Shown: piece by piece, positions 13,161 through 61,998 of the stretch | Layout: each line of letters starts with the position of its first letter | How positions within the stretch are numbered: position 1 is the stretch's first letter | NCBI GenBank assembly: GCA_041660565.1 | Contig: JBAZWC010000001.1 | Span: forward strand, 430,481-494,480 | Source of the DNA: Patescibacteria group bacterium | Lineage (GTDB): Bacteria > Patescibacteriota > UBA1384 > CAJBMM01 | DNA length: 64,000 nucleotides | Reading direction: 5' to 3' | Notes under the pieces: model-generated | What the model saw: the letters and a program-made list of their open reading frames with translations, nothing else | Databases searched by the model: none | Told to the model about the DNA's origin: nothing | Position numbers and translations under genes: made by a program

Positions 13161-13859
13161 ATGTCATCAGCAAATACTGGCTCAACTGATAATATCCGTT
13201 TTGCCGTTTTGGCCGCCGATACGGTGCTGCTGACTTTTCAAAATGATAAATTATTTGTCAGATTAGTGTCTGTTAATCGCCCACCACATTTCCCCGAAGG
13301 GAGTAAAGGCTTGCCAGGGGGGCTACTATTTCCCGATGAAGTCGCAGAACAATCCGCTGCCAGACATATACAAACAAAAGGCGGAATTAATCCTGATAAA
13401 GTATACTTGGAGCAACTTTACACATTTAGTGAGGTTGATCGTGATCCACGTGGCCGGGTTGTCGCAGTAGCATATTTGGCCGTAGTACCATGGGATCGAC
13501 TTGATCCAATCGAAAAACAGAATAATAACGACGCATGGTGGAGTGAGGTTAGCAAAACTGGAAATCTAGCCTACGATCACAATAAAATTTTAGATATGGC
13601 TTTAACAAGACTTCGCCATCGTATTTCTTACTCAACGATTGTATGTAAGTTATTACCAAATGAATTTAGTTTGACCGAATTGCAAGATATTTTTTCGGTT
13701 GTATTATCAAAAAAACTTGATAAAAGAAATTTCCGAAAAAAAATACTCAAATTAGATATTCTGAAACCACTCTCCCACAAACAAGATAGTCGACCATACC
13801 GACCCGCGCGGCTATATACATACAAATCTTCGGACGTTGAAGAAATAGATATCATTTAA
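13161..13859 (+). CDS. nrtR: NrtR-family transcriptional regulator (Nudix-like ADP-ribose-binding domain plus C-terminal winged helix)
   Basis: Degenerate Nudix box GLLFPDEVAEQSAARHIQTKGG (RH instead of RE). C-terminal NEFSLTELQDIFSVVLSKKLDKRNFRKKI. Immediately upstream of nadM-nadV. AT-rich, like the host genome. Confidence 0.7.
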   Translation: MSSANTGSTDNIRFAVLAADTVLLTFQNDKLFVRLVSVNRPPHFPEGSKGLPGGLLFPDEVAEQSAARHIQTKGGINPDKVYLEQLYTFSEVDRDPRGRVVAVAYLAVVPWDRLDPIEKQNNNDAWWSEVSKTGNLAYDHNKILDMALTRLRHRISYSTIVCKLLPNEFSLTELQDIFSVVLSKKLDKRNFRKKILKLDILKPLSHKQDSRPYRPARLYTYKSSDVEEIDII

Positions 13860-13931
13860 ACATCGATCTCAATTTATTTTTATCTTGAAAGACCCTGAAA
13901 AGGGTTTTTTTGTTGGGGGGGTATTGACAAC

Positions 13932-13979
13932 GTGTAATTTATACACTATCTTAGAAATAGATAGTGTGATTTTTACACT
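13932..13979 (+). promoter_or_regulatory. cluster of three palindromes (candidate NrtR operators) overlapping a TTGACA-17-TATCTT promoter upstream of nadM
   Basis: GTGTAatttaTACAC (13932-13946), TATCTtagaaaTAGATA (13947-13963), AGTGTgatttttACACT (13963-13979). TTGACA at 13924-13929. Confidence 0.4.
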
Positions 13980-14006
13980 TAGCACATTAACAACAGGAGA
14001 TATACG

Positions 14007-14909
14007 ATGCCAAATGGTCCTGCAGCTGTGGGGGTAGTCGTTGCCCGATTTCAAGTGCCCGAGCTTACCCTCGGTCATCAAGCTCTGATTGAATTCGTAG
14101 AAAGCCAAGTCAAGCAAGTCTTGCTCGTACTCGGCACATCGGAAGCCTTTGCCACCAGCCGCAATCCCCTCAGCTTTGCCGCTAGACGGGAGATGGTTCT
14201 GGCATCGTACCCCAATGTCAAGGTGGTCAGTCTGGCTGATCACCCATCCGATTCCGTCTGGTCCACTAACCTGGATCAACTGATCAAAAAGATGTTCCCG
14301 GACCAGTCGGTTTCCCTCTACGGGTCGCGCGATTCCTTTCTAACCACCTACTCCGGCACCCTGCCTGTGGTTGACTTTCCCGCCTTACCTTGCCTGTCTG
14401 GAACCGAGAACCGTGTCGCCCTTCTAGACAACCCACCAACCAGCCCCGATTTCCGCAAGGGGATTGTCTACAGCCAAGTCGCCCGAGCCGGGATCCCCTA
14501 CGCCACTGTTGATATAGCAATCGTCGATGAGAACAAGGGGCTCGTTCTCTTGGGTGGCAAGCCAACTGACGGAGACCGCTATCGTTTCATCGGCGGTTTC
14601 GTTGATGTTAACGATGAATCCCTGGAACGAGCCGCAAAACGCGAGGCTTACGAAGAAACCGGCGGTCTCGAGATAGACGATCTCCGCTACTTCGGATCAG
14701 CGAAGGTCGTTGATTGGCGCTACCAAGGAACCGGCGATGGAATCTTGACTAGCTTCTTCGCCGCAACCTACATTTTCGGTTGCGCAAAGGCCCAGGACGA
14801 CATCGCACGAGTGAAATGGGTACCGATCAAGGAAGTCAAGCAGTACCTCGTCCCGGAACATCAGATTCTGGGCAGCATGCTCCTCAAACAGCACCATCTG
14901 ACACGATAA
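14007..14909 (+). CDS. nadM: bifunctional NMN adenylyltransferase / Nudix (ADP-ribose) pyrophosphatase, NadM-Nudix type
   Basis: N-terminal nucleotidyltransferase motif (ARFQ..ELTLGH). C-terminal Nudix box GGFVDVNDESLERAAKREAYEETGG. GC-rich. Confidence 0.8.
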   Translation: MPNGPAAVGVVVARFQVPELTLGHQALIEFVESQVKQVLLVLGTSEAFATSRNPLSFAARREMVLASYPNVKVVSLADHPSDSVWSTNLDQLIKKMFPDQSVSLYGSRDSFLTTYSGTLPVVDFPALPCLSGTENRVALLDNPPTSPDFRKGIVYSQVARAGIPYATVDIAIVDENKGLVLLGGKPTDGDRYRFIGGFVDVNDESLERAAKREAYEETGGLEIDDLRYFGSAKVVDWRYQGTGDGILTSFFAATYIFGCAKAQDDIARVKWVPIKEVKQYLVPEHQILGSMLLKQHHLTR

Positions 14910-14924
14910 GAAAGGGAGACGACC

Positions 14925-16313
14925 ATGTCTGACAACATCATCCTCCTCACCGACAGCTACAAGCCAACCCACGGCCCCCAGTACCCGCCACGCACCCAGA
15001 CTATCTTCTCGTTCTACGAGAGCCGGGGCGGCCTTTTCCCTGAGACCACCTTCTTTGGCCTCCAGTACCTGATCAAGCGATATCTGCTCGGTCAAGTGGT
15101 GACCGAGGAGAAGATCGAGGAAGCCTATGAAGTTCTGGGGAGCCACTTCGGCAACTCGAATTACATGAACCGGGCTGGCTGGGAATACATCCTGAAGGCA
15201 CACGGTGGACGGTTGCCAATCCTCATCCGGGCCATACCGGAGGGGACATCGATCCCAAACCACAACGTCCTCATGACGGTGCAGAACACCGACCCCAACG
15301 GCCTGCCATGGCTCACCAACTACCTGGAGACTCTGCTCTGCCAGGTCTGGTACCCCTGCACGGTCGCCACCCAGAGCCGGGCCATGCGCCAGGAGATCCT
15401 CCGCTTCCTCGAGGAAACGGGCGATCCCAGCCAAATCGACTTCAAGCTGCATGACTTCGGTTTCCGGGGTTCCACCAGCGTGGAGTCAGCTGGTATCGGC
15501 GGGGCGGCCCACTTGGTCAACTTCAAGGGGACTGACACCCTCGAAGCCATCATGGTCGCCCGTCGTTACTACGGCGAGAACATGGCCGGCTACTCGATCC
15601 CAGCCGCCGAGCACAGCACCATCACATCCTGGGGCAAAGAGCACGAGGCTGACGCTTACGCCAACATGCTCACGGCCTACCCCACCGGCACCGTAGCCGT
15701 AGTCTCGGACAGCTACGACGTATTCAACGCTTGTCGCTCCATCTGGGGTGGACAGCTCAAGGAGCGCGTTCTGGCCCGAGACGGCGTCCTCGTCATTCGC
15801 CCCGACAGCGGTAACCCCCCGGAAGTGGTCACCCAGGTCCTCGATATTCTCGGGCAGACCTTCGGCTTCACCACCAACGACAAGCAGTACAGGGTACTGC
15901 ACCCAAAGGTCCGGGTCATTCAGGGCGACGGCATCGACTACGCCATGATCACCCAGATCCTGACCGCTATGCGGCAGGCGGGATGGTCAGCTGATAATCT
16001 CGCCTTCGGCTCCGGCGGCGGTCTGCTCCAGAAGGTCAACCGAGACACCCAGCGTTTCGCCTTCAAGTGCTCAGCCGCTCAGATCGACGGAACCTGGCGC
16101 GATGTGATGAAGGACCCTGTCACTGATCCCGGCAAGCGTTCCAAGGCGGGCCATCTGGCCCTTGTACGCAACAGCGCCGGCGACTGGAAGACCATGCGCG
16201 AGTCAGACGCCGAAGCCATGGGATTCTCCAACCAACTAGTCCCTGTCTTCAAAGACGGCGCCCTATTGGTTGATTACAACTTCCAGTCCATTCGAGATCG
16301 CGCCGCGATGTAA
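14925..16313 (+). CDS. nadV: nicotinamide phosphoribosyltransferase (NAMPT/NadV)
   Basis: LLTDSYKPTH signature and full-length similarity to NadV. GC-rich. Starts 16 nt after the nadM stop. Confidence 0.85.
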   Translation: MSDNIILLTDSYKPTHGPQYPPRTQTIFSFYESRGGLFPETTFFGLQYLIKRYLLGQVVTEEKIEEAYEVLGSHFGNSNYMNRAGWEYILKAHGGRLPILIRAIPEGTSIPNHNVLMTVQNTDPNGLPWLTNYLETLLCQVWYPCTVATQSRAMRQEILRFLEETGDPSQIDFKLHDFGFRGSTSVESAGIGGAAHLVNFKGTDTLEAIMVARRYYGENMAGYSIPAAEHSTITSWGKEHEADAYANMLTAYPTGTVAVVSDSYDVFNACRSIWGGQLKERVLARDGVLVIRPDSGNPPEVVTQVLDILGQTFGFTTNDKQYRVLHPKVRVIQGDGIDYAMITQILTAMRQAGWSADNLAFGSGGGLLQKVNRDTQRFAFKCSAAQIDGTWRDVMKDPVTDPGKRSKAGHLALVRNSAGDWKTMRESDAEAMGFSNQLVPVFKDGALLVDYNFQSIRDRAAM

Positions 16314-17842: not shown

Positions 17843-17922
17843 ACATTAACATTGACAGAGACTGGTATAAATGATATTTTATGACCAAGATCGTCCACTA
17901 CGTATCAAGGGGGTGAGTTGCG

Positions 17923-18177
17923 ATGCAAGTACTTGGGAAGGTTGTAAGCATCCAGGAACCCGTTGCCCTGTTGTCCGGACAGGAATCTGACGGGGTTACG
18001 ATCCTATCGGGCACGGAGTGCTTTGACGTCCTGTTCCCCAAGGGAGCGGTAACTCCGCACATGGTTGGATCGCTAATCGTGTTCGAGATGGCCGAGGAGA
18101 TCATGGTCGCCCGATATGGCAGCCAGCCAAGATGCGTCGTGAGCATCGACCCGCCCGACGCGACACTCGGACACTAG
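17923..18177 (+). CDS. hypothetical small protein (GC-rich)
   Basis: 84 aa. RBS aagggggtgag. Followed by the hairpin CAGGCGCTGTG..CACAGCGCCTG. Confidence 0.4.
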   Translation: MQVLGKVVSIQEPVALLSGQESDGVTILSGTECFDVLFPKGAVTPHMVGSLIVFEMAEEIMVARYGSQPRCVVSIDPPDATLGH

Positions 18178-18890: not shown

Positions 18891-18966
18891 GCCGACATAG
18901 CTCAGCTGGTAGAGCAGTGCTTTCGTAAAGCAAAGGTCATCGGTTCGATTCCGATTGTCGGCTCCA
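18891..18966 (+). tRNA. tRNA-Thr (anticodon CGT)
   Basis: GCCGACATAGCTCAGCTGGTAGAGCAGTGCTttcgtaaAGCAAAGGTCATCGGTTCGATTCCGATTGTCGGCTCCA. Confidence 0.8.
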
Positions 18967-19050
18967 GATTTTTGCAATCTATCGCCGCGTTTTCAACGAC
19001 CGGATCCAGATTTTTGCAATCTATCGCCGCGTTTTCAACGACCGGCTCCA
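18967..19050 (+). repeat. 2 x 42-bp tandem repeat abutting the tRNA-Thr 3' end, each unit ending in a tRNA-end-like CGG(A/C)TCCA
   Basis: gatttttgcaatctatcgccgcgttttcaacgaccggatcca repeated twice. The tRNA itself ends ..gtcggctcca. Confidence 0.7.
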
Positions 19051-19085
19051 AAAAAATTCTCCGCCAGGGAGAATTTTTGTTTGTC
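19051..19085. terminator. bidirectional intrinsic terminator
   Basis: aaaaaaaTTCTCCgccaGGGAGAAttttt, with T/A runs on both sides. Confidence 0.65.
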
Positions 19086-19305
19086 TTAAATATTAGTAGA
19101 CCGGTCCCGAAAGCGATGCCATCGGGACCGGGTTGTGCACGACCATCGCGCCCGTTGCCTAACCAAGGGATGGAAAGCGCTCTGCTTCCCAAGCCCCGCC
19201 GTGACGGGTTAGGTAACGAGCGGGGTCGCTGGTGTTACGAGGACCTTCATGTGAGTCCTCCTGGGTGAGCGCGGTGGTGGCTTTGGACATCTAGCCTGGC
19301 GCTCA
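19086..19305 (-). ncRNA. candidate GC-rich structured small RNA (about 220 nt), unknown class
   Basis: Minus-strand promoter TTGACA (19334-19339), 17 nt, TATTTT (19311-19316). GC-rich hairpins (GACCGGTCCCGA..TCGGGACCGG and GCCTAACC..GGTTAGG). Ends at the bidirectional terminator. Contains a 12-codon ORF with a perfect AGGAGG SD (MKVLVTPATPLVT). Confidence 0.35.
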
Positions 19306-19514
19306 TCAGTAAAATATCAAAAACGATTTTCGCTGTCAACAAAAAATAGAGCGCACGCTGATTTGCCAAATCCGTTGCCACCCTTAAATATCCCTAGTAA
19401 TCCTTAGCGATTCGAAAATCGCCTCTCCATTTTTAAATAAATTCGAGATTCCAAAAGTTTAAAAATTAAAAAACTATTTGACATTTGTCATTAGAAATTA
19501 GTCATTAGACATTT

Positions 19515-25596: not shown

Positions 25597-25692
25597 ATTC
25601 TGCCCCTTTTATTTAAGATTAAGCGATCGGACCAAAATATGCAACAAATCCTTCGACAAAACCAGGAATCTAATCCTGAGCTTGTCGAAGGA

Positions 25693-25769
25693 TGGCGCGA
25701 GCGACCGGACTTGAACCGGCGACCTCCACAGTGACAGTGTGGCGTTCTAACCAACTGAACTACGCCCGC
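25693..25769 (-). tRNA. tRNA-Asp (anticodon GTC)
   Basis: The reverse complement reads GCGGGCGTAGTTCAGTTGGTTAGAACGCCACActgtcacTGTGGAGGTCGCCGGTTCAAGTCCGGTCGCTCGCGCCA. Confidence 0.85.
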
Positions 25770-25842
25770 ATTTACCCCGTTCTGCGGGGTTAGTATTACT
25801 ATAACACATTTGGAGGATAGAAAATAGAGGGGATCACGACCT

Positions 25843-25910
25843 GTCATCCCCGCCCCGCTAAGCGGGGCTAAGGAACGCTTAGCGTCCCGACATTTTATTC
25901 GGGGATCCAG
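25843..25910. repeat. GTCATCCC/ACGCTTAGCGTCCC hairpin module
   Basis: CCCCGCcccgctaaGCGGGG and the ACGCTTAGCGT palindrome. The related GGGACGCTAAGCGTCCC recurs at 30775-30810. Confidence 0.5.
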
Positions 25911-25933
25911 AAAAAAACCTAGAAGTATTTTTC

Positions 25934-26020
25934 ATAGACTGCCCCGAAGTAAGTTCGGGATGGCTGGCGCCAGATTCCCACCGAAGTCTACCCCGAGCTT
26001 TGCCTCGGGGCGGGAATGAC
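25934..26020. repeat. 87-bp repeat, left copy (inverted relative to 30161-30248)
   Basis: atagactgccccgaag..cgggatggctggcgccagattccc..ctaccccgagctttgcctcggggcgggaatgac. Its reverse complement is about 90% identical to 30161-30248. Confidence 0.8.
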
Positions 26021-26029
26021 AACCTGCTC

Positions 26030-26057
26030 TTGACTCACACCACTGTTTTTGCCATAA
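26030..26057 (+). promoter_or_regulatory. sigma70-type promoter TTGACT-17-CATAAT
   Basis: ttgactcacaccactgtttttgccataat. The downstream leader ggcgttgatcttgaacaactt is shared with the unit starting at 26752. Confidence 0.6.
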
Positions 26058-26063
26058 TCGAGG

Positions 26064-26640
26064 TGTTAAGACGCATAGGGCGTTGATCTTGAACAACTTG
26101 CCCCATCGCAACCGTGGATACTGCTTACCTCTCGGAAGCGATGGCATCTCCTGCAAAAGTATTCAAGGAAGCCCTGTGCGCGTCGCCCCCACTCCCGAGC
26201 CCGGTCAAATGGGGCTCAAGTCCCGTTCAAAAAACGGAGAAGCGTATGAAGCAGTTCGTCGCCTAACCTATCAGCGGGGTGGTCTCGGCAACACGCACCT
26301 GTTGGATAGGTTGCGCGCCCGGACCATTAGATGTCCACTCTCGGTCGGCGTTGAGCGGATTAGATACCCGCTTCAGGTCGACCACGTCTGTTAGGATGTC
26401 GTTGTTTGTTGAACAGAGGCGCGGTGGGTGGGCGAACCCACCTCGCCTCTGGCCTCATCGTCACACATCATCCGCCAGCCGCGCAGGAAACCGCGCATCC
26501 AGCCCCACCTTTCTTCCTACATCCCTTTAAGCGAGGTTCGCCTCGTGTCCCAAGTCGCGCCCCCTCCCAGCCCGGGAGTGGGGCGCTTCTCATTTCCGTC
26601 GCCTTTTCACACCTCCGAGGTGTTTGCCGTTGCCACGGTT
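26064..26640 (+). ncRNA. candidate large GC-rich non-coding transcript, unit 1 (about 0.6 kb)
   Basis: About 62% GC. No ORF above 110 aa, and the small ORFs overlap in all frames. Strong promoter. Ends near the hairpin CACCTCCGAGGTG. Confidence 0.4.
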
Positions 26641-26704
26641 TCACCTCTGAGGAGTGAAATGTCTCTGTCCTCCGTCATCAGTCATCTGTTTTCCGACAGG
26701 GGTA

Positions 26705-26732
26705 TTGACAACCATTTTTATTCTGCTATAAT
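26705..26732 (+). promoter_or_regulatory. consensus sigma70 promoter TTGACA-16-TATAAT
   Basis: ttgacaaccatttttattctgctataat, followed by the leader ggcgttgaccttgaacaact. Confidence 0.7.
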
Positions 26733-26738
26733 GGATCA

Positions 26739-27874
26739 TGTACGCCGATAAAGGCGTTGACCTTGAACAACTGAAAATCCATATCCTCGTCCGGTTAGAG
26801 TCTGGTTAAACCGGCTTGTGGACAGGGTCCACCAGTGGTTCGGGATTGACGCCTTTTCGGCGTTTTGACAAGTTATTAGTCGTTTTTGCCCTAAAATCCA
26901 GCACGTCGAAAGGAAGCACGTCCATGAGGGTGCACGAGCCGTTCGTGAACTTGGAGAAGAACATATGCACGTTCGACGGCAGCACCGGCAACTCGATCAG
27001 CCCGGACGCCGGCCTCAGCGCGTGACCGCCTCCGGCGCCGCCTAGGCCACGGGCCTCGGCGCGCCCAACACGGCGCGTAGCGTGGTGCACGGGGCGCGGT
27101 GCGGCGAGGAGCGTCCTCCCCACCGCGCGCCCGTGGTCTCACAGCTGTTATCTTCCTTGAAGGGAGGCGTCGAGATGAGAGTCGCGACGTCGGGATTCAC
27201 CTAGCGGAAGCTAGGTCGGCCTACCCCGCGGTGTTCGGGCCAACCGGTTGGCAGAGGCACACCCTCTCGCCGGCTGGCGACACTGTGGGTCACTCCCTCC
27301 CCCGGCAGATCCGCCGGGAAAGGAGACACCCCCATGAACCTGCACCAAACCCTGGCCGCCATCAACGGCGGAGGGTAGCACGCGCTCGGCGGTTCGCGTC
27401 TGAGAGTCCGGGTACACCCCGGTTAAGATGAGGGGATCCGACACATAACGCGGATCGTGATCTAGTCGCACCTGTGAGAGTAAGAAGCTGTCCGTGGGCG
27501 GCTAACCCACGGAGCGCATCGATGGAATCTGCGCGAGCAGCGTCGCTGGCATAGGCCGGCGGTCATCTCTGCCGCAAAGCAGGTTCCGTCCTCGGGGCGG
27601 GCGTCGCACAGAGGGCCGTGATTCACTGGCCCCGTATGACACGCCTGGCCCGTCGCGACGCGGAGGGGAACTCGGCTGAACCAACCCCCTCCGCCTCGCC
27701 GTACGAAGTACAAACCGGCGCGTAGCGCGCCACACTACCAAATCGATCCTGGGCGGGACTCCTTCTCGCCCAACATGCCCGCAGCTTTGCATCCTGCGAC
27801 CATGGCTCGGCCGCTTCCCATCATCGGGGGGCGGCCGTTCTACTTTTTATACACCTTTTAGAGGTGTTTTTTTG
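26739..27874 (+). ncRNA. candidate large GC-rich non-coding transcript, unit 2 (about 1.1 kb, roughly 67% GC)
   Basis: Only short overlapping ORFs in all six frames. Two internal small ORFs carry strong SDs (gaaaggaag..ATG, 33 aa; aaaggaga..ATG MNLHQTLAAINGGG). Double terminator: GGCCGC..GCGGCC plus T-run, then ACACCTtttaGAGGTGT plus T7 (27852-27874). Confidence 0.4.
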
Positions 27875-27925
27875 ATTGAAAGAACGTAGCCCAAGCTTCT
27901 TGAACGTGAATTGGGAAACTATAAT

Positions 27926-28074
27926 GTCATTTCGACCCTAGGAGATTGTCAAATCGACTATGTTGGAGAAATCTGAGAAAGAATCCCTTCCCGTCTTTTC
28001 TTGAGATTTCTCCACCCTCGAGACAACGCTCGAGGCTCTGCCCGTAGGCTACGCCCGGAGGGAGTCGAAATGAC
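27926..28074. repeat. ~150-bp composite hairpin of the GTCATTTCGAC subfamily
   Basis: gtcatttcgaccct...agggagtcgaaatgac outer stem. Inner pair ggagaaatctgagaaagaa / ttcttgagatttctcc. Related to 55843-55908 and 56091-56137. Confidence 0.7.
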
Positions 28075-28167
28075 AGATTGTGGTCGATGGTTTGCAACAC
28101 ATAAGATGATCTAGTATTTTTGTTAAAAACGTCTTAGAATAATAATCGACAACATAAAGGAGTTTAT

Positions 28168-29457
28168 ATGGAAGTACTACGCAATATGTGGCGACGCAAG
28201 TTTCGCTCATTTTTAACCATTATGGGCATTTCTATCGGAATTTTTGCCTTTACGGTGATGGGATCGCTGGCCCTAAAATTTAACAAAATGATTTCAGGTG
28301 GCAAGGATTACGTTACCGGGCAAATTACCATTATGCCTAAAGGCACTAGCTTTTCCACCGGCGCCACCACCAGCACCTTGCCGGTTTCGGTGCTTGATAA
28401 CATCGCCAAAGTAGATGGTGTAGAAGCGGTAATGCCAACAGTGCAGCTAGCACTATCAGATCCAGATCCAGACAATCCGGCCGCCAGCAGCGCTTCTTTC
28501 GGTACGCCACCCACCATTGTTGGATCAGACTATTCATCCGCCTTCAAAAACAAAAACTGGGATAAATTGGCTATGAAAGAAGGGCACAATATTATCGCCA
28601 GTGAAGGTGATGATAAAGTTGCTATTGGCATTAGTATTTCGGCCGATAAAAAACTACACGTTGGCGATAAAATGACCATTCGTGGAAAAGATTTTACGGT
28701 GGTTGGGGTAGCTGACCGCACCAATACCGGCCCGGATTCGTACATTTTTATGAACATTAAACCGGCGCGCGAAATGTTAATTGAGTCTAATCCATTCTTA
28801 AAATCGCTTAAAGATCAGGCAGACAAAGCCAACGCTATTTCCGCTGCCGCTCTGGCGCAGTTGCCGGCAGATACCCAAGCCCAATTGGCACAGGCAAAAA
28901 CGTTTAAGGTTGAAGACGTCAATTCCATGGCTGCGGCTTCGTGGAAAGACGGTTACGACCCAGAGACAGTGGTCAAAAACATCAAAGATAAATACAAAAA
29001 TGAAGTGTTGGTAATGTCGCCAAAAGAGTTAGGTGATCAGATAGATAAAGCATCAGTGCTACTAAATGCGGTAATTTTAGGATCAGCGTTAATTGCCTTA
29101 ATTGTAGGTGGTTTTTCGGTGATCAATACTATGATTATGTCGGTTTCCGAGCGCACCAAAGAAATTGGGGTCAAAAAAGCCATCGGCGCTAGCGGTTGGA
29201 CCATCGCCAAGGAGTACACATTTGAAGCGGGCGTAATTGGCATTTTAGGTGGTTTGATTGGAATGGGGTTGGGGCTGCTAATGATTACCATCGTCAATCA
29301 TAATTTGGCCGACAAAGGCGCGGAGATCTTTTTGGTACAAAACAGCTTTTTGGCCGAAGTGGTGCTGTTTAGCTTTTGTTTGGGCATTGTGGCCGGCATT
29401 ATTCCGGCGTGGCGTGCTAGTAGGTTAAAGGTGGTTGACGCCATCAGAGAGCTATAA
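28168..29457 (+). CDS. ABC transporter permease, FtsX/MacB-like
   Basis: N-terminal TM, large extracytoplasmic MacB_PCD-like domain, C-terminal FtsX four-TM bundle. Confidence 0.8.
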   Translation: MEVLRNMWRRKFRSFLTIMGISIGIFAFTVMGSLALKFNKMISGGKDYVTGQITIMPKGTSFSTGATTSTLPVSVLDNIAKVDGVEAVMPTVQLALSDPDPDNPAASSASFGTPPTIVGSDYSSAFKNKNWDKLAMKEGHNIIASEGDDKVAIGISISADKKLHVGDKMTIRGKDFTVVGVADRTNTGPDSYIFMNIKPAREMLIESNPFLKSLKDQADKANAISAAALAQLPADTQAQLAQAKTFKVEDVNSMAAASWKDGYDPETVVKNIKDKYKNEVLVMSPKELGDQIDKASVLLNAVILGSALIALIVGGFSVINTMIMSVSERTKEIGVKKAIGASGWTIAKEYTFEAGVIGILGGLIGMGLGLLMITIVNHNLADKGAEIFLVQNSFLAEVVLFSFCLGIVAGIIPAWRASRLKVVDAIREL

Positions 29458-30144: not shown

Positions 30145-30160
30145 CTGACACTCGCCCGAT

Positions 30161-30248
30161 GTCATTCCCGCCCCGAGGCAAAGCTCGGGGTAGACTTTGA
30201 CGGGAATCTGGCGCCAGCCATCCCGAACATGCTTCGGGGACAGTCTAT
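30161..30248. repeat. 87-bp repeat, right copy (inverted relative to 25934-26020)
   Basis: gtcattcccgccccgaggcaaagctcggggtagac..gggaatctggcgccagccatcccg..cttcggggacagtctat. Confidence 0.8.
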
Positions 30249-30363
30249 AACAAACTGTTTCTACTCAAGGGATCGCAAAGGATATATTAAGGGTGGCCAG
30301 GGATTGGGCAACATTTTTGCGTAACCAGCGTCAGACATTATTGTACAAACGAAAGGAAAATGT

Positions 30364-37381: not shown

Positions 37382-37546
37382 AATCGATATTTACTAAAAA
37401 CAGAGGGCGGATATGAAATATATTCGGCCTCTGTTTTGTTATTGACAAATATAATTCGGTATGATATAATATAACTATCTACCGTACCTTAACGTAGCTA
37501 TCAGCTGAGCAGGTAAGCTCAAACCAAAAACTAGGGGGATACTCCC

Positions 37547-38284
37547 ATGCTGTACGTCAGTTTGGCGTTGATAATCGCCGCGCTCGCCAGTTGGATCATT
37601 AGGCTGATTTTTGCGAACGCACGCCTACGCCGTAAGTCGGCTTACGACTGGCTAACCGGACTATTGTCTAAGCCAGGTATCATCGAGATTGGACAGAGAA
37701 TCGTTTCAAGTTCGGTTCGATATTCGGAATCAGACCCGCCGGTAGTTGTAATGTTGGCAGACCTGGATGGGTTCAAACGCCTCAACGACAAGTGCGGTCA
37801 CCACGCCGGAGACGAAATGCTGCGCAGCGTCGCTGGCAACGTCTTTGGCCACTTGCGTGAGTCCGACGGTGTCGGGCGCGTGGGCGGTGACGAATTCGTG
37901 CTTGTTGCTCGGGGCGACGCGCTGAGTTTAGCGCAAAAGATCGAGTCGTCCATGAACGCGATTAACACTTGGGGCGCTGGCCGTGGATTCCCCGAGGTCG
38001 GGATGAGCATTGGCATTGCGGTGCTAAACCACGAAAAAGTGGGACTGTTCTGCTTTGCCACCGGCCGCAGCTGGAAAGCGCTGCGCCCACTCGGGGAGAT
38101 CGGGGTGTACCATTCCAAGCACCGGAAGGTGTTTGGAAAGTTTGTGGCTGGGGCGTCTCGGACTAAGCTGTTGGAGAGCCACCTAAACAAAGTCCGAGAG
38201 CTGGCCACACACCCCGTGACTTTTGACGGAATGACTGCGGCGGCGGATGCCGCAATGTACTCCGCTAAGACAGGGGAAAGATGA
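37547..38284 (+). CDS. GGDEF-domain diguanylate cyclase with N-terminal TM helix
   Basis: ADLDGFKRLNDKCGH and RVGGDEFVL motifs. GC-rich. Confidence 0.8.
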   Translation: MLYVSLALIIAALASWIIRLIFANARLRRKSAYDWLTGLLSKPGIIEIGQRIVSSSVRYSESDPPVVVMLADLDGFKRLNDKCGHHAGDEMLRSVAGNVFGHLRESDGVGRVGGDEFVLVARGDALSLAQKIESSMNAINTWGAGRGFPEVGMSIGIAVLNHEKVGLFCFATGRSWKALRPLGEIGVYHSKHRKVFGKFVAGASRTKLLESHLNKVRELATHPVTFDGMTAAADAAMYSAKTGER

Positions 38285-44308: not shown

Positions 44309-44971
44309 ATGACAGAATATATTATTGTGCGGGCAAAACGCCGTAGTGTGCAAATCAAAATTGATCACGATGGTAAAGTGATAGTGCGGGCGCCGTTTTG
44401 GGTTTCCTTACGTCAAATTGATCAATTTGTGCATCAAAACGAGGCGTGGATTGCTAAAAGACTCGATGTACACCAACAGCAACCACACCGCCAATCGCAT
44501 CATTTTAATGATGGCGATATGTTTTGGTATTTGGGAAAAGAATATCCACTAAAGATTTCAGGTGAGATCAGTGGCAAGGTGAGATTTGAGAATGCGCTAA
44601 TTATTCCCAATACCAAACCGGAACTAGCTAGAACAATGATACTGAAATGGTACAAAAACGAGGCAGACATGTTTTTACGACAGCGGCTAGATCAATTTGC
44701 TACCTTAATGGATATTAAATATCATGCAGTCAAAATTACCTCAGCAACTAGCCGCTGGGGATCGTGCAATCACCTTAACTCAATTAGCCTGAATTGGAAG
44801 CTAATTCAAGTTCCAAAAGACGTTATTGATTACGTGGTGGTGCACGAGCTGGCGCACATTTTACAACATAACCATAGTAAACTGTTTTGGGCTGAGGTTG
44901 AAAAAGTACTACCCGATTATAAAATCAGGCGTAAATGGCTGAAAGACCACGGCTTTCTGTTGCAATTTTAA
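44309..44971 (+). CDS. DUF45/YgjP-like zinc metallopeptidase (M48-related HExxH)
   Basis: VVHELAHILQHNHS motif with a YgjP-like N-terminal region. Confidence 0.6.
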   Translation: MTEYIIVRAKRRSVQIKIDHDGKVIVRAPFWVSLRQIDQFVHQNEAWIAKRLDVHQQQPHRQSHHFNDGDMFWYLGKEYPLKISGEISGKVRFENALIIPNTKPELARTMILKWYKNEADMFLRQRLDQFATLMDIKYHAVKITSATSRWGSCNHLNSISLNWKLIQVPKDVIDYVVVHELAHILQHNHSKLFWAEVEKVLPDYKIRRKWLKDHGFLLQF

Positions 44972-44979
44972 CTCATCTA

Positions 44980-45009
44980 TTGACATTAAGATTCAGTTGG
45001 AGTATATAT
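44980..45009 (+). promoter_or_regulatory. sigma70 promoter TTGACA-18-TATATA
   Basis: ttgacattaagattcagttggagtatatata. Confidence 0.6.
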
Positions 45010-45015
45010 ATTAAT

Positions 45016-45432
45016 GTCAGGCCGAGAAAGTCCTGCGTCTCGCTGATCAGCGAGAAAGCAGGCCTTTCAAGCGACTAGCTAGATGGCGACCGAGTCCCAT
45101 CTAAGCCTGGCGCCACCAGTGGGTACCGCACCGAATTGCAAGTAGGGCAGTGCCCCAAAAACCAAATAAAGACAACCGAATATTGCCGATGGCGGCAGGG
45201 CAAGAAGTGTTCGGGAGTCGCGGAGGATCCTGCGGATTGCTCTGGTGAGCATGCACATGGAAGTCAATGGCGGGGACGTGCGTACGCCTTGCACTTCACC
45301 ATTAACGATCCCAAAGCGAGGATCAGCAGCCACCCGAGTACCCCTAAGGATCTCAGCCTTACCCGAACCAGGGGGTCGGCGCATTCGCGCCGGCCCCTCC
45401 CTATTTTTTTCAACCCTTGTGGTTGTTTTTTT
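45016..45432 (+). ncRNA. candidate GC-rich non-coding transcript, unit A (about 0.4 kb)
   Basis: About 60% GC and ORF-poor. Double terminator: GGTCGGCGCattcGCGCCGGCC plus T8, then CAACCcttgtGGTTG plus T7. Confidence 0.4.
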
Positions 45433-45459
45433 ATCTATAATTCAAGCAGTAATTCACTA

Positions 45460-45489
45460 TTGACATAAGTTTGTTACAAGAGTATATTC
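45460..45489 (+). promoter_or_regulatory. sigma70 promoter TTGACA-18-TATATT
   Basis: ttgacataagtttgttacaagagtatattc. Confidence 0.6.
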
Positions 45490-45495
45490 ATTGAT

Positions 45496-45898
45496 GTTGG
45501 GAGATAGCAGACGCGACGTCGCCATCTTCAATGCAGTTCGCCGGAAACTGCGGCGGTTGTGCGAGAGATTTCTCGCCAATCCAACACTGGTCACAAGGTG
45601 CTCGTGGGAGTTTCAACCAAGTGGCCAGGCTCCGACACAGCCTACGACGATCTGGGGGTCTGCATGGAGGTAACTCCACCGAAGAGAGTCGTATGGGATA
45701 TGTAACCGGATTCAAGCTCCAAGCCCATGGATACGGGCCACGCCGCTCTTAAGCGGATACCGAACCTCCGCACGGAGGACCATGGGATACAGCTCATATC
45801 TGTTTACAAACTCCCAAACCGCACACGCCTAACGGGGGCCGGTCGCCAGTTGATCGGCTCCCCCCCATTTTTTTCAACCCAAGTGGTTGTTTTTTTGT
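45496..45898 (+). ncRNA. candidate GC-rich non-coding transcript, unit B (about 0.4 kb)
   Basis: Same architecture as unit A, including the double terminator: GGGGGCCG..CGGCTCCCCC plus T7, then CAACCcaagtGGTTG plus T7. Confidence 0.4.
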
Positions 45899-55842: not shown

Positions 55843-55908
55843 TGTCATTTCGACCCTGCGAGAATGTCAATTCGAGCGTGTTGGAGAAATCTAAGGAAGA
55901 ATCCCATC
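55843..55908. repeat. GTCATTTCGAC subfamily repeat
   Basis: cttgtcatttcgaccctgcgagaatgtcaattcgagcgtgttggagaaatctaaggaagaatccc. Related to 27926-28074. Confidence 0.6.
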
Positions 55909-56090
55909 CACAATTTTAAATTTTAAAGGCAAAATTTTAAATGAATAAGTACCGAATGATTAAATTTTAAATGGTTCCTTATTAAGTCATTAAAAATTGG
56001 CAACCATTCATTTGATAATCTCGAGCGTTCCGCGAGTGATTTCGATGCTAAGCATCTAATTAAAAATTAATAATTTATAATTCTTTTTTT

Positions 56091-56137
56091 GCAGATTTCT
56101 CCACCCTCGACTTGAATATCGAGGAGTCGAAATGACA
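56091..56137. repeat. GTCATTTCGAC subfamily repeat (reverse orientation)
   Basis: cagatttctccaccctcgacttgaatatcgaggagtcgaaatgac. Confidence 0.6.
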
Positions 56138-56166
56138 ACTTGTGACGTATACCTTGAACCAACGTT

Positions 56167-61503: not shown

Positions 61504-61998
61504 GTAGTCTAAATCTTTTCGGATCATCGCCCCTAACGGGGAGGAAAGTCCGGGCACCTGATAAGCGTTGTACTGACGCATCTGCTAGCATTAGTTAGCA
61601 GCGAAGTCTAGCTGCCCCGTCATTCGACAGGGCAAGGGAATAGTGCAACAGAAAATACACAGCCAGCCAATGCGTTGCATTGGAAATTCGAAATTCTAAA
61701 TTCCAATTTATAAACATAAGGAAATTTGTTTATAGGCTGGATTCCCGCCTGCGCGGGAATGACGCCTCGAGTTTCTAGTGCAGCGCGTCGGGGGCAAAGG
61801 TGAAAACGTGTGGTAAGAGCGCACGCGCTTTAGCAGCAATGCTAATTTGTGAAAACCCTGCATGGTGCAAGTCTGGTGGACCATTCGCTTCAATTGTGCT
61901 TATCCAAGAAGCGGGTTTGGCCCAGACGCGTAGATAGATGATGGTCAAGTATTTGTTTACAAATACTACAGAACCCGGCTTATAGAAACGGTTTAGAC
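61504..61998 (+). ncRNA. rnpB: RNase P RNA (bacterial type A) with an enlarged P12 region
   Basis: Promoter -10 TATAAT at 61494-61499. P4 5' strand GGAGGAAAGTCCGGGC (61539-61554). AGTGCAACAGAAA. GGTAAGAGCGCAC (61815-61827). P4 3' strand ACAGAACCCGGCTTA (61965-61979). P1 pairing GTCTAAA/TTTAGAC. Terminator AATGACGCtgttAGCGTCATT plus T-run at 62001-62030. Confidence 0.85.
61739..61763. repeat. GTCATTCC-family hairpin inside the rnpB P12 expansion
   Basis: ggATTCCCGCctgcGCGGGAATgac, preceded by an about 55-nt AT-rich insert (aaattcgaaattctaaattccaatttataaacataaggaaatttgtttatag). Confidence 0.7.

Follow-up and report, generated by a model that had tools for sequence, protein, structure and literature searches.

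What do two adjacent, strongly promoted stretches of DNA specify when neither of them holds a credible long gene? The question is raised by a 64-kb window of a Patescibacteria group bacterium (contig JBAZWC010000001.1; the window is the whole stretch of 64,000 nt that was analyzed, and all coordinates refer to it), in which two tandem GC-rich transcription units, unit 1 (26065–26700) and unit 2 (26739–27874), are predicted on the plus strand of the gap between a tRNA-Asp gene (25693–25769, minus strand) and a gene for a MacB-type ABC permease (28168–29457). Judged from its sequence, the locus may be a lineage-specific operon of the stable-RNA type, which would produce two large structured RNAs, use boxA-like antitermination and, in unit 2, encode a 33-aa peptide; we give this reading an even chance. 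Patescibacteria genomes are tiny and streamlined, and that such a genome keeps about 1.8 kb of DNA rich in predicted structure, strongly promoted and apparently not translated argues for a function.

Promoters, shared leader and terminators

Promoters were recognized as consensus hexamers with a spacing of 16–18 nt, and terminators as a GC-rich hairpin followed by a U-run. The two sigma70 promoters of the original prediction are present: P1 (26030–26058, plus strand) reads TTGACT-17-CATAAT, has a TG extended -10 and agrees with 10 of the 12 consensus positions, and P2 (26705–26732, plus strand) reads TTGACA-16-TATAAT, also with a TG extended -10, and agrees with all 12. Only two promoters in the window reach 12/12, P2 being one of them; the other, TTGACA-17-TATAAT at 37442–37470, is located upstream of a GGDEF-domain gene (37547–38284, GC 57%).

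Unit 1 is a predicted structured transcript of about 0.6 kb, ORF (open reading frame)-poor and 59% GC, whose start would lie approximately 7 nt past the -10 hexamer and whose 3' end is approximate. Unit 2, of about 1.1 kb, comprises a leader hairpin, a small ORF (small ORF 1), a hairpin-dense GC-rich core (27030–27800, plus strand) with a GC content of up to 82%, and the double intrinsic terminator that had been proposed for its end. The latter (27808–27874, plus strand; minimum free energy (MFE) -35.2 kcal/mol, z -5.8 against shuffled sequences) consists of a 12-bp GC stem with a T-run at 27808–27837 and a 7-bp stem followed by T7 at 27851–27867. No canonical plus-strand terminator was found between the units (26590–26705), the end of unit 1 showing a sole weak hairpin, ACACCU-CCG-AGGUGU-UU, at 26609–26625. 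In the absence of a good terminator at this position, P1 transcripts probably run on into unit 2. The promoters, the terminators and the better-folding strand of 27400–27900 all agree in indicating the plus orientation.

Both units begin with a shared leader, as originally claimed. The 20-mer GGCGTTGAYCTTGAACAACT occurs twice in the 64 kb, at 26079 and 26753, against 0.02 occurrences expected from shuffles, and each copy begins 21 nt past its -10 hexamer, with the likeness of the two leaders spanning 52 nt at 71% identity. Beyond this promoter-leader module, the units have nothing in common by BLAST, and we rejected the idea that they are paralogues because their likeness ends there. Copy 1 of the leader box (26079–26098, plus strand) is GGCGTTGATCTTGAACAACT and copy 2 (26753–26772, plus strand) is GGCGTTGACCTTGAACAACT; in each unit the box forms the 5' arm of a long hairpin, at 26072–26180 in unit 1 (plus strand; MFE -41.7 kcal/mol, z -3.2) and at 26742–26863 in unit 2 (plus strand; MFE -55.9 kcal/mol, z -5.4). 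The unit 2 hairpin is near-perfect and could serve as an attenuator, since its GC-rich base (CGCCGA/UCGGCG) is followed by UUUU.

The leader box bears a resemblance to boxA. The site in unit 1, TGATCTTGAACAA, agrees at 11 of 13 positions with the boxA of the E. coli rrnH leader, TGCTCTTTAACAA, and the site in unit 2, TGACCTTGAACAA, at 10 of 13; the reference was taken from the E. coli genome and may not be that of the host. The gamma-proteobacterial consensus used was GYTCTTTAANA. Both sites lie at about +20 of the predicted transcript and keep C4, T5 and T6, with positions 2 and 7 deviating, and the unit 1 site is the only one in the 64 kb with two or fewer mismatches to boxA. NusB/NusE are recruited by boxA, and polymerase thereby becomes Rho-resistant while it transcribes long untranslated RNAs, for instance those of rRNA operons and CRISPR arrays (PMC5725501, PMC7665894); the boxA consensus varies from phylum to phylum (PMC7665894, PMC5725501). 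With boxA-like leaders and no good terminator after unit 1, the layout resembles a small rRNA-type operon for untranslated RNA.

Folding, composition and the small ORFs

Predicted folding of the units is stronger than that of their shuffled counterparts. Unit 1 as a whole has an MFE of -254 kcal/mol (z -6.4) and unit 2 one of -549 kcal/mol, while local windows reach z-scores of -2.4 to -4.5 in unit 1 and down to -5.1 on the plus strand of unit 2. When the window was divided into 200-nt segments, the seven inside the units averaged z -2.8, compared to -0.73 (sd 1.48) outside them; as controls, GC-rich coding segments gave about -0.5 and the RNase P RNA of the host gave -2.7. In 27400–27900, the plus strand folds better than the minus strand.

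The GC content is 58.8% at 26064–26640 and 62.7% at 26739–27874, below the 62% and 67% first stated for them, and it rises to 66.7% in 26924–27840; the first 185 nt of unit 2 have just 49%, and the window as a whole 45.7%. All ORFs in 25597–28167 are 110 aa or shorter and overlap across the six frames, none being credible as a long gene, in agreement with the original prediction. The period-3 power of both units is mostly 0.4–1.3 with a peak of about 2 (in unit 1 mostly no higher than 1, with a maximum of 2.1), against a window median of 2.0. Ten six-frame translations of the units gave no match in Pfam or PHROG. Without a period-3 signal and without a Pfam or PHROG match, a frameshifted gene from a high-GC donor does not describe approximately 1.6 of the 1.8 kb; a degraded protein gene of such a donor was rejected on the non-coding period-3 values outside the small ORF 1 zone (26880–27060) and on protein searches that returned only the locus itself.

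The exception lies at 26820–27060, where the period-3 power reaches 3.2–3.4, the level of real genes, and coincides with small ORF 1 (26924–27025, plus strand). This ORF encodes 33 aa, MRVHEPFVNLEKNICTFDGSTGNSISPDAGLSA, is preceded by the Shine-Dalgarno (SD) sequence AAGGAAG 7 nt upstream, and is listed by IMG as a hypothetical protein. G or C occupies the third position (GC3) in 32 of its 33 codons (binomial P=3e-6), compared to a GC1 and GC2 of 0.45, and its local fold z is about 0, unlike the remainder of the units. No other part of the region carries a coding signature. A minus-strand ORF of 105 aa (26806–27123) is a less likely source of the GC3 signal, as the signal boundaries fit it worse: the third-position GC run ends near 26915, at the start of the plus-strand ORF, and is not continued into the C-terminal part of the minus-strand one. 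Given its GC3, its good SD and its lack of excess structure, small ORF 1 looks genuinely coding, now or recently, and unit 2 is probably not purely non-coding. Both SD-led ORFs noted earlier in unit 2 are there, the second (27334–27378, plus strand) encoding 14 aa, MNLHQTLAAINGGG, with a perfect SD, AAGGAG, 8 nt upstream in a locally unstructured stretch.

An exhaustive HMMER search of small ORF 1 against 1.8 billion representatives returned weak matches with E values of 1e-5 to 1e-4. The top-ranked one (P0123) was not reproduced in pairwise BLAST. Two examined matches hold up: they are tandem P..v...IATFDGTTGKLI.D.G repeats in proteins that match PHROG 28473, a tail fiber family, so that small ORF 1 bears a weak likeness to a single unit of the FDGTTGK repeat found in tail-fibre proteins.

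Could the units then be mRNAs for very small proteins of 33, 14 and perhaps 6 aa, with the GC-rich parts acting as stabilizing or regulatory untranslated regions (UTRs)? The coding signature, well-spaced SD and unstructured context of small ORF 1, its annotation as a gene by IMG, and the perfect SD of small ORF 2 speak for this. The two ORFs nevertheless account for less than 10% of unit 2, and unit 1 has no credible ORF; a small-peptide gene whose 3' UTR is structured over 800 nt, with z as low as -5, would have no precedent, the 1.8 billion representatives yielded no homologous peptide apart from the weak repeat matches, and the adjacent genes include no peptide-specific processing, export or immunity functions, only a generic MacB/ABC pair. 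The small-peptide alternative of the original prediction is therefore retained for the 33-aa ORF, which has its coding signature, and not for the bulk of the locus; as a full account of the units we deem it unlikely.

The small ORF 1 zone also invites comparison with a diversity-generating retroelement (DGR), reportedly common in Patescibacteria. Here, the zone would be the template repeat and unit 2 the template RNA, with the reverse transcriptase and the target elsewhere. In favour, a zone of about 130 nt has its adenines almost exclusively at codon positions 1 and 2, contains four AAC codons, closes with a stop codon ahead of a hairpin of very high GC content, and resembles a tail-fibre-type repeat. 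However, template repeats normally adjoin the reverse transcriptase gene, and neither a reverse transcriptase nor an Avd-type gene was found among the window ORFs scanned. A search of both strands of the window that tolerated differences at adenines revealed no variable-region copy, the best non-self alignment agreeing at about 50% of the non-A positions. With neither the copy nor the enzyme in the window, the DGR template was rejected, and we regard it as very improbable.

Known families, neighbourhood and origin of the GC-rich DNA

Rfam 15 was searched with the whole window under gathering scores, and at E<=10 with the region and also with each unit by itself. No match in the region reached the gathering thresholds, and E<=10 gave only chance hairpin matches. 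The families that the original prediction had brought into play, ROOL, GOLLD, OLE, HEARO, raiA and group II introns, were all without a match even at E<=10. The ROOL model, with its conserved multi-pseudoknot core, matched at neither threshold with the units taken together or separately, and the GOLLD model, including its universally conserved 3' domain, did not match at E<=10. The models for the group I intron, transfer-messenger RNA (tmRNA), RNase P, signal recognition particle (SRP) RNA and 6S RNA likewise gave nothing in the units at E<=10, those for small- and large-subunit (SSU/LSU) rRNA did not match the units, and ARAGORN found no tmRNA. These results exclude ROOL, GOLLD, OLE, HEARO, raiA, group I and II introns, tmRNA and rRNA as families for the units. 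One part of the earlier suggestion of large structured RNAs therefore stands, in that the folding exceeds that of shuffles and coding controls, period-3 is mostly absent and no protein matches; the other part does not, as none of the named classes fits. The region also contains no tandem repeats or CRISPR-like arrays, and no cas genes were found.

A possible link to rRNA was examined separately. A hairpin of unit 1, GCGG-AUUAGAUAC-CCGC at 26355–26371, matches the 790 loop (helix 24) of 16S rRNA in its 9-nt loop and in the closing pairs, and a single 13-mer, GGATTAGATACCC (26357), is common to unit 1 and E. coli 16S rRNA. The probability of a shared word of at least 13 nt in shuffles is 0.083, the BLAST E values are 0.1 or higher (0.17 for the 790-loop match), and no covariance model matches; a reduced rRNA or rRNA mimic was rejected on these grounds.

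Homologues were sought in DNA and protein collections. The leader 20-mer gave 21 hits in GTDB genomes, 28 in JGI metagenomes and none in IMG/VR, a chance-level rate, and every hit is a single copy, located inside a protein-coding gene of an unrelated taxon or in DNA that looks eukaryotic. The units show no similarity to phage or plasmid DNA, and three interior 20–23-mers are absent from IMG/VR. A tblastn search of small ORF 1 against phages returned nothing meaningful. A 175-aa query made of spurious ORF translations retrieved only the locus itself; a 1792-aa concatenate of all frames gave no match, its candidate list probably being swamped by low-complexity words. Small ORF 1 and the spurious ORF translations are singleton clusters among approximately 15 billion proteins.

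Several of these observations weigh against the reading as a stable-RNA operon. With no homologue in GTDB genomes, JGI metagenomes, IMG/VR, phages, plasmids or 15 billion proteins, the reading has neither covariation nor purifying selection to draw on. The boxA match is a resemblance to an E. coli sequence and not to the host's own rRNA leader, and boxA-like sites with up to three mismatches are not enriched in the window (18 vs 23 expected). GNRA and UNCG tetraloops are not strikingly over-represented among the hairpin loops, and negative fold z-scores are also found in non-functional palindrome-rich DNA. Finally, a GC content of 63–67% is far above that of the host RNase P RNA (47.5%) and tRNAs (51–62%), a level that would be expected of foreign DNA no less than of structural selection.

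The abrupt compositional jump raises the question of whether GC-rich reads of another organism were joined to a Patescibacteria contig, the more so as short-read contigs break in the flanking repeats. A Logan contig (L058), an independent assembly of the same sample, is 100% identical over 25992–27953, and because it spans the AT-rich/GC-rich junction, that junction is not an artefact of the original assembly. This contig was produced by a different assembler and runs in one piece through the AT-rich promoters, the GC-rich units and the AT-rich terminator, and it ends on both sides within repeats of which this genome has further copies; a chimera would moreover require several AT/GC junctions, every one of them coinciding exactly with a promoter or a terminator. 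Assembly chimerism or contamination is, in our view, the least probable of the explanations considered.

The repeats in question are two families that resemble miniature inverted-repeat transposable elements (MITEs); they have GC-rich internal hairpins, and short-read contigs break at them. Repeat A (25842–26021), detected by an inverted-repeat search, has the terminal inverted repeats TGTCATCCCCGCCCCG and CGGGGCGGGAATGACA and stops 8 nt short of the P1 -35 hexamer, and repeat B (27925–28075) has the terminal inverted repeats TGTCATTTCGAC and GTCGAAATGACA, with partial copies in 55843–56144. Repeats A and B flank the units, share TGTCAT...ATGACA termini and have further copies in the window. 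By BLAST within the window, the right 95 nt of repeat A (25928–26021) recur in inverted orientation at 30254–30160 with 92% identity, and this partial copy (30160–30254, minus strand) and its counterpart bracket both units together with the macB-type ABC transporter genes. The bounding inverted repeat reported before is thus present, at a length of 95 nt and not 87.

The divergent left neighbour is a tRNA-Asp(GTC) gene, as had been noted; it is identified by ARAGORN, scores 69.9 bits with the Rfam tRNA model and is one of 13 tRNA genes found by ARAGORN in the 64 kb. The flanking proteins are those of Patescibacteria, with Berkelbacteria-like best matches. The closest relatives of the MacB permease have only 64–68% identity, and the locus was not found in their regions upstream of macB, where the sequence is different and densely coding. 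The remaining genes of the window are ordinary chromosomal ones, GAPDH, aldolase, RpiB, Rpe, RNase Y and RNase HII among them, and no phage gene, integrase or reverse transcriptase was identified among the ORFs scanned in the window. A bacterial class A RNase P RNA is present at 61511–61998 (488 nt, 125.5 bits, GC 47.5%); compared to the 367 positions of the model, its length indicates approximately 120 nt of insertions.

Several features suggest a high-GC source for the GC-rich bodies: the GC3 of small ORF 1, its weak tail-fibre likeness, the orphan status of most other GC-rich genes in the window and the proximity of GC-rich islands to tRNA genes. The 17 GC-rich islands (at least 200 nt with a GC content of at least 58%) have a median distance to tRNA genes of 638 nt, compared to 1737 nt for random positions (P ~0.01), and the majority of the other GC-rich ORFs of the window have no Pfam domain. 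On the sequence evidence, this pattern suggests that the bodies were acquired from a high-GC source, perhaps a mobile element, and further suggests that high-GC DNA was acquired repeatedly beside tRNA genes.

Other places in the window have a similar composition or layout. A 42-nt tandem repeat at 18959–19050 (2.2 copies, 96% identical) begins within the 3' end of tRNA-Thr (18891–18966), and this duplication looks like an att-type scar of an integration at the tRNA gene. Just past it, a third GC-rich (~63%) and ORF-poor unit with a body of about 220 nt lies on the minus strand (19085–19339), with a promoter, TTGACA-17-TATTTT, at 19339–19311 and a bidirectional terminator near 19050–19080; it contains an AGGAGG-led mini-ORF of 13 codons, MKVLVTPATPLVT, has no boxA-like leader and gave no Rfam match at E<=5. 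An orphan GC-rich ORF of 84 aa (17923–18177; GC3 0.70) follows a strong promoter, TTGACA-17-TATTTT at 17852–17880, has no Pfam match and is a singleton cluster among the 15 billion proteins. A cluster for NAD salvage at 13161–16313 comprises an NrtR-like regulator, a Nudix protein and a nicotinamide phosphoribosyltransferase, the last two of which were probably acquired horizontally, given GC3 values of 0.61 and 0.79 in a genome of 46% GC. A 750-nt ORF-poor gap at 44971–45727 contains a strongly folding segment (45001–45200, z -5.2) and a promoter, TTGACA-17-TATATT, at 45460–45488, and gave no Rfam match at E<=5.

A foreign source does not by itself imply a function, and the GC-rich segments could be recent foreign DNA, for example debris of a mobile element or phage from a high-GC organism that landed beside tRNA-Asp between MITE-like repeats and is transcribed to no purpose, with hairpins that are palindromes or terminators of the donor. 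Consistent with this are a composition far from that of the host, the GC3 of small ORF 1, typical of high-GC genomes, and its resemblance to PHROG 28473, along with the clustering of GC-rich islands and mostly orphan genes near tRNA genes, the integration-type scar at tRNA-Thr and the confinement of the locus to one genome, with its absence upstream of macB in relatives. On the other side, the GC-rich parts are framed by two near-consensus promoters, a promoter-leader module present in duplicate and a double terminator, with a precision that is hard to obtain without selection for expression, and about 1.6 kb lack any codon periodicity, whereas most of a piece of dense phage or high-GC bacterial DNA would be expected to code. 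Neither DNA nor protein searches gave a phage or plasmid match, the scanned ORFs include no integrase, reverse transcriptase or phage gene, and useless DNA would be expected to be lost from a streamlined Patescibacteria genome. We consider functionless foreign DNA the most serious of the rival explanations, with a probability well short of even.

Candidate mechanism and known RNA systems

In the stable-RNA operon that we favour, the two very strong sigma70 promoters would drive RNAs of about 0.6 and 1.1 kb, unrelated to each other. In both, the shared 20-nt box would supply the 5' arm of a long hairpin at the start of the RNA. The transcript bodies would be GC-rich, hairpin-dense and free of codon periodicity, with strong terminators at the end of unit 2 only. 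P1 transcripts would read through into unit 2, making P2 an internal promoter comparable to the tandem rrn promoters. The leader box would act as a boxA-type NusB/NusE site, and antitermination would shield the long untranslated RNA from premature Rho-type termination, in the manner known from rRNA operons and CRISPR arrays. Unit 2 would be bifunctional, its unstructured, SD-bearing stretch giving rise to the 33-aa peptide and its GC-rich 3' part of about 800 nt forming a folded RNA. The GC-rich bodies would have arrived by horizontal transfer, with a high-GC source, perhaps a mobile element, as donor.

The layout is like that of an rRNA operon, with strong promoters, an early boxA-like 13-mer in each transcript, long untranslated structured products and strong terminal terminators. 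In rrn operons, a second boxA is located in the 16S-23S spacer, and here, too, a second boxA-like copy precedes the second RNA; in contrast to rrn operons, the products of the units are not rRNA. With boxA-antiterminated CRISPR arrays (PMC7665894), the units share a promoter-proximal boxA or boxA-like site and a long non-coding transcript of partly foreign derivation, but they have no repeats, spacers or cas genes.

Large bacterial RNAs of undefined role are rare and count among the most interesting open problems in RNA biology. ROOL (~600–660 nt) and GOLLD (>800 nt) are large, abundant RNAs of unknown function, often found near tRNA islands (PMC12286853). Among known RNAs they are the nearest analogues of the units, which are comparable to both in size class, hairpin density, tRNA adjacency, the lack of a protein partner encoded alongside, very strong expression signals (here predicted from the sequence) and a probable mobile or foreign origin. 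They differ from ROOL and GOLLD in matching neither covariance model, in a GC content far above that of the host, in the tandem arrangement of two unrelated RNAs behind a common leader and in the embedded small ORF that appears to be translated; ROOL and GOLLD occur in phages and prophages, whereas the units have no phage genes nearby in the 64 kb and form a singleton rather than a family. OLE is similar in being highly structured, about 600 nt long and expressed from a strong promoter, and differs in its Rfam model, which the units do not match, and in its setting, a conserved operon with oap genes in Firmicutes, as no oap genes are present at this locus.

OLE, ROOL and GOLLD have recently been shown to form RNA-only assemblies. 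By analogy with ROOL and GOLLD, which are abundant, tRNA-adjacent and carried by mobile elements, we think it more likely that the units would form an RNA particle, one that assembles by itself or sequesters proteins, than that they would regulate by base pairing. In its boldest form, the locus would be an rRNA-operon-like source of two new classes of giant ornate RNA, one of them peptide-encoding, both probably derived from a high-GC mobile element and acting as abundant particles (scaffold, cage or protein sink) and not as regulators; this proposal is tentative and less probable than the operon itself.

Were the transcripts functionless, the locus would still document the uptake of high-GC DNA beside tRNA genes in a symbiont-type genome. 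If the stable-RNA reading is correct, the units would represent new classes of large RNA from an uncultured phylum, a natural case of boxA-type antitermination beyond rRNA and CRISPR loci, and an example of a bifunctional long RNA that is both coding and structural.

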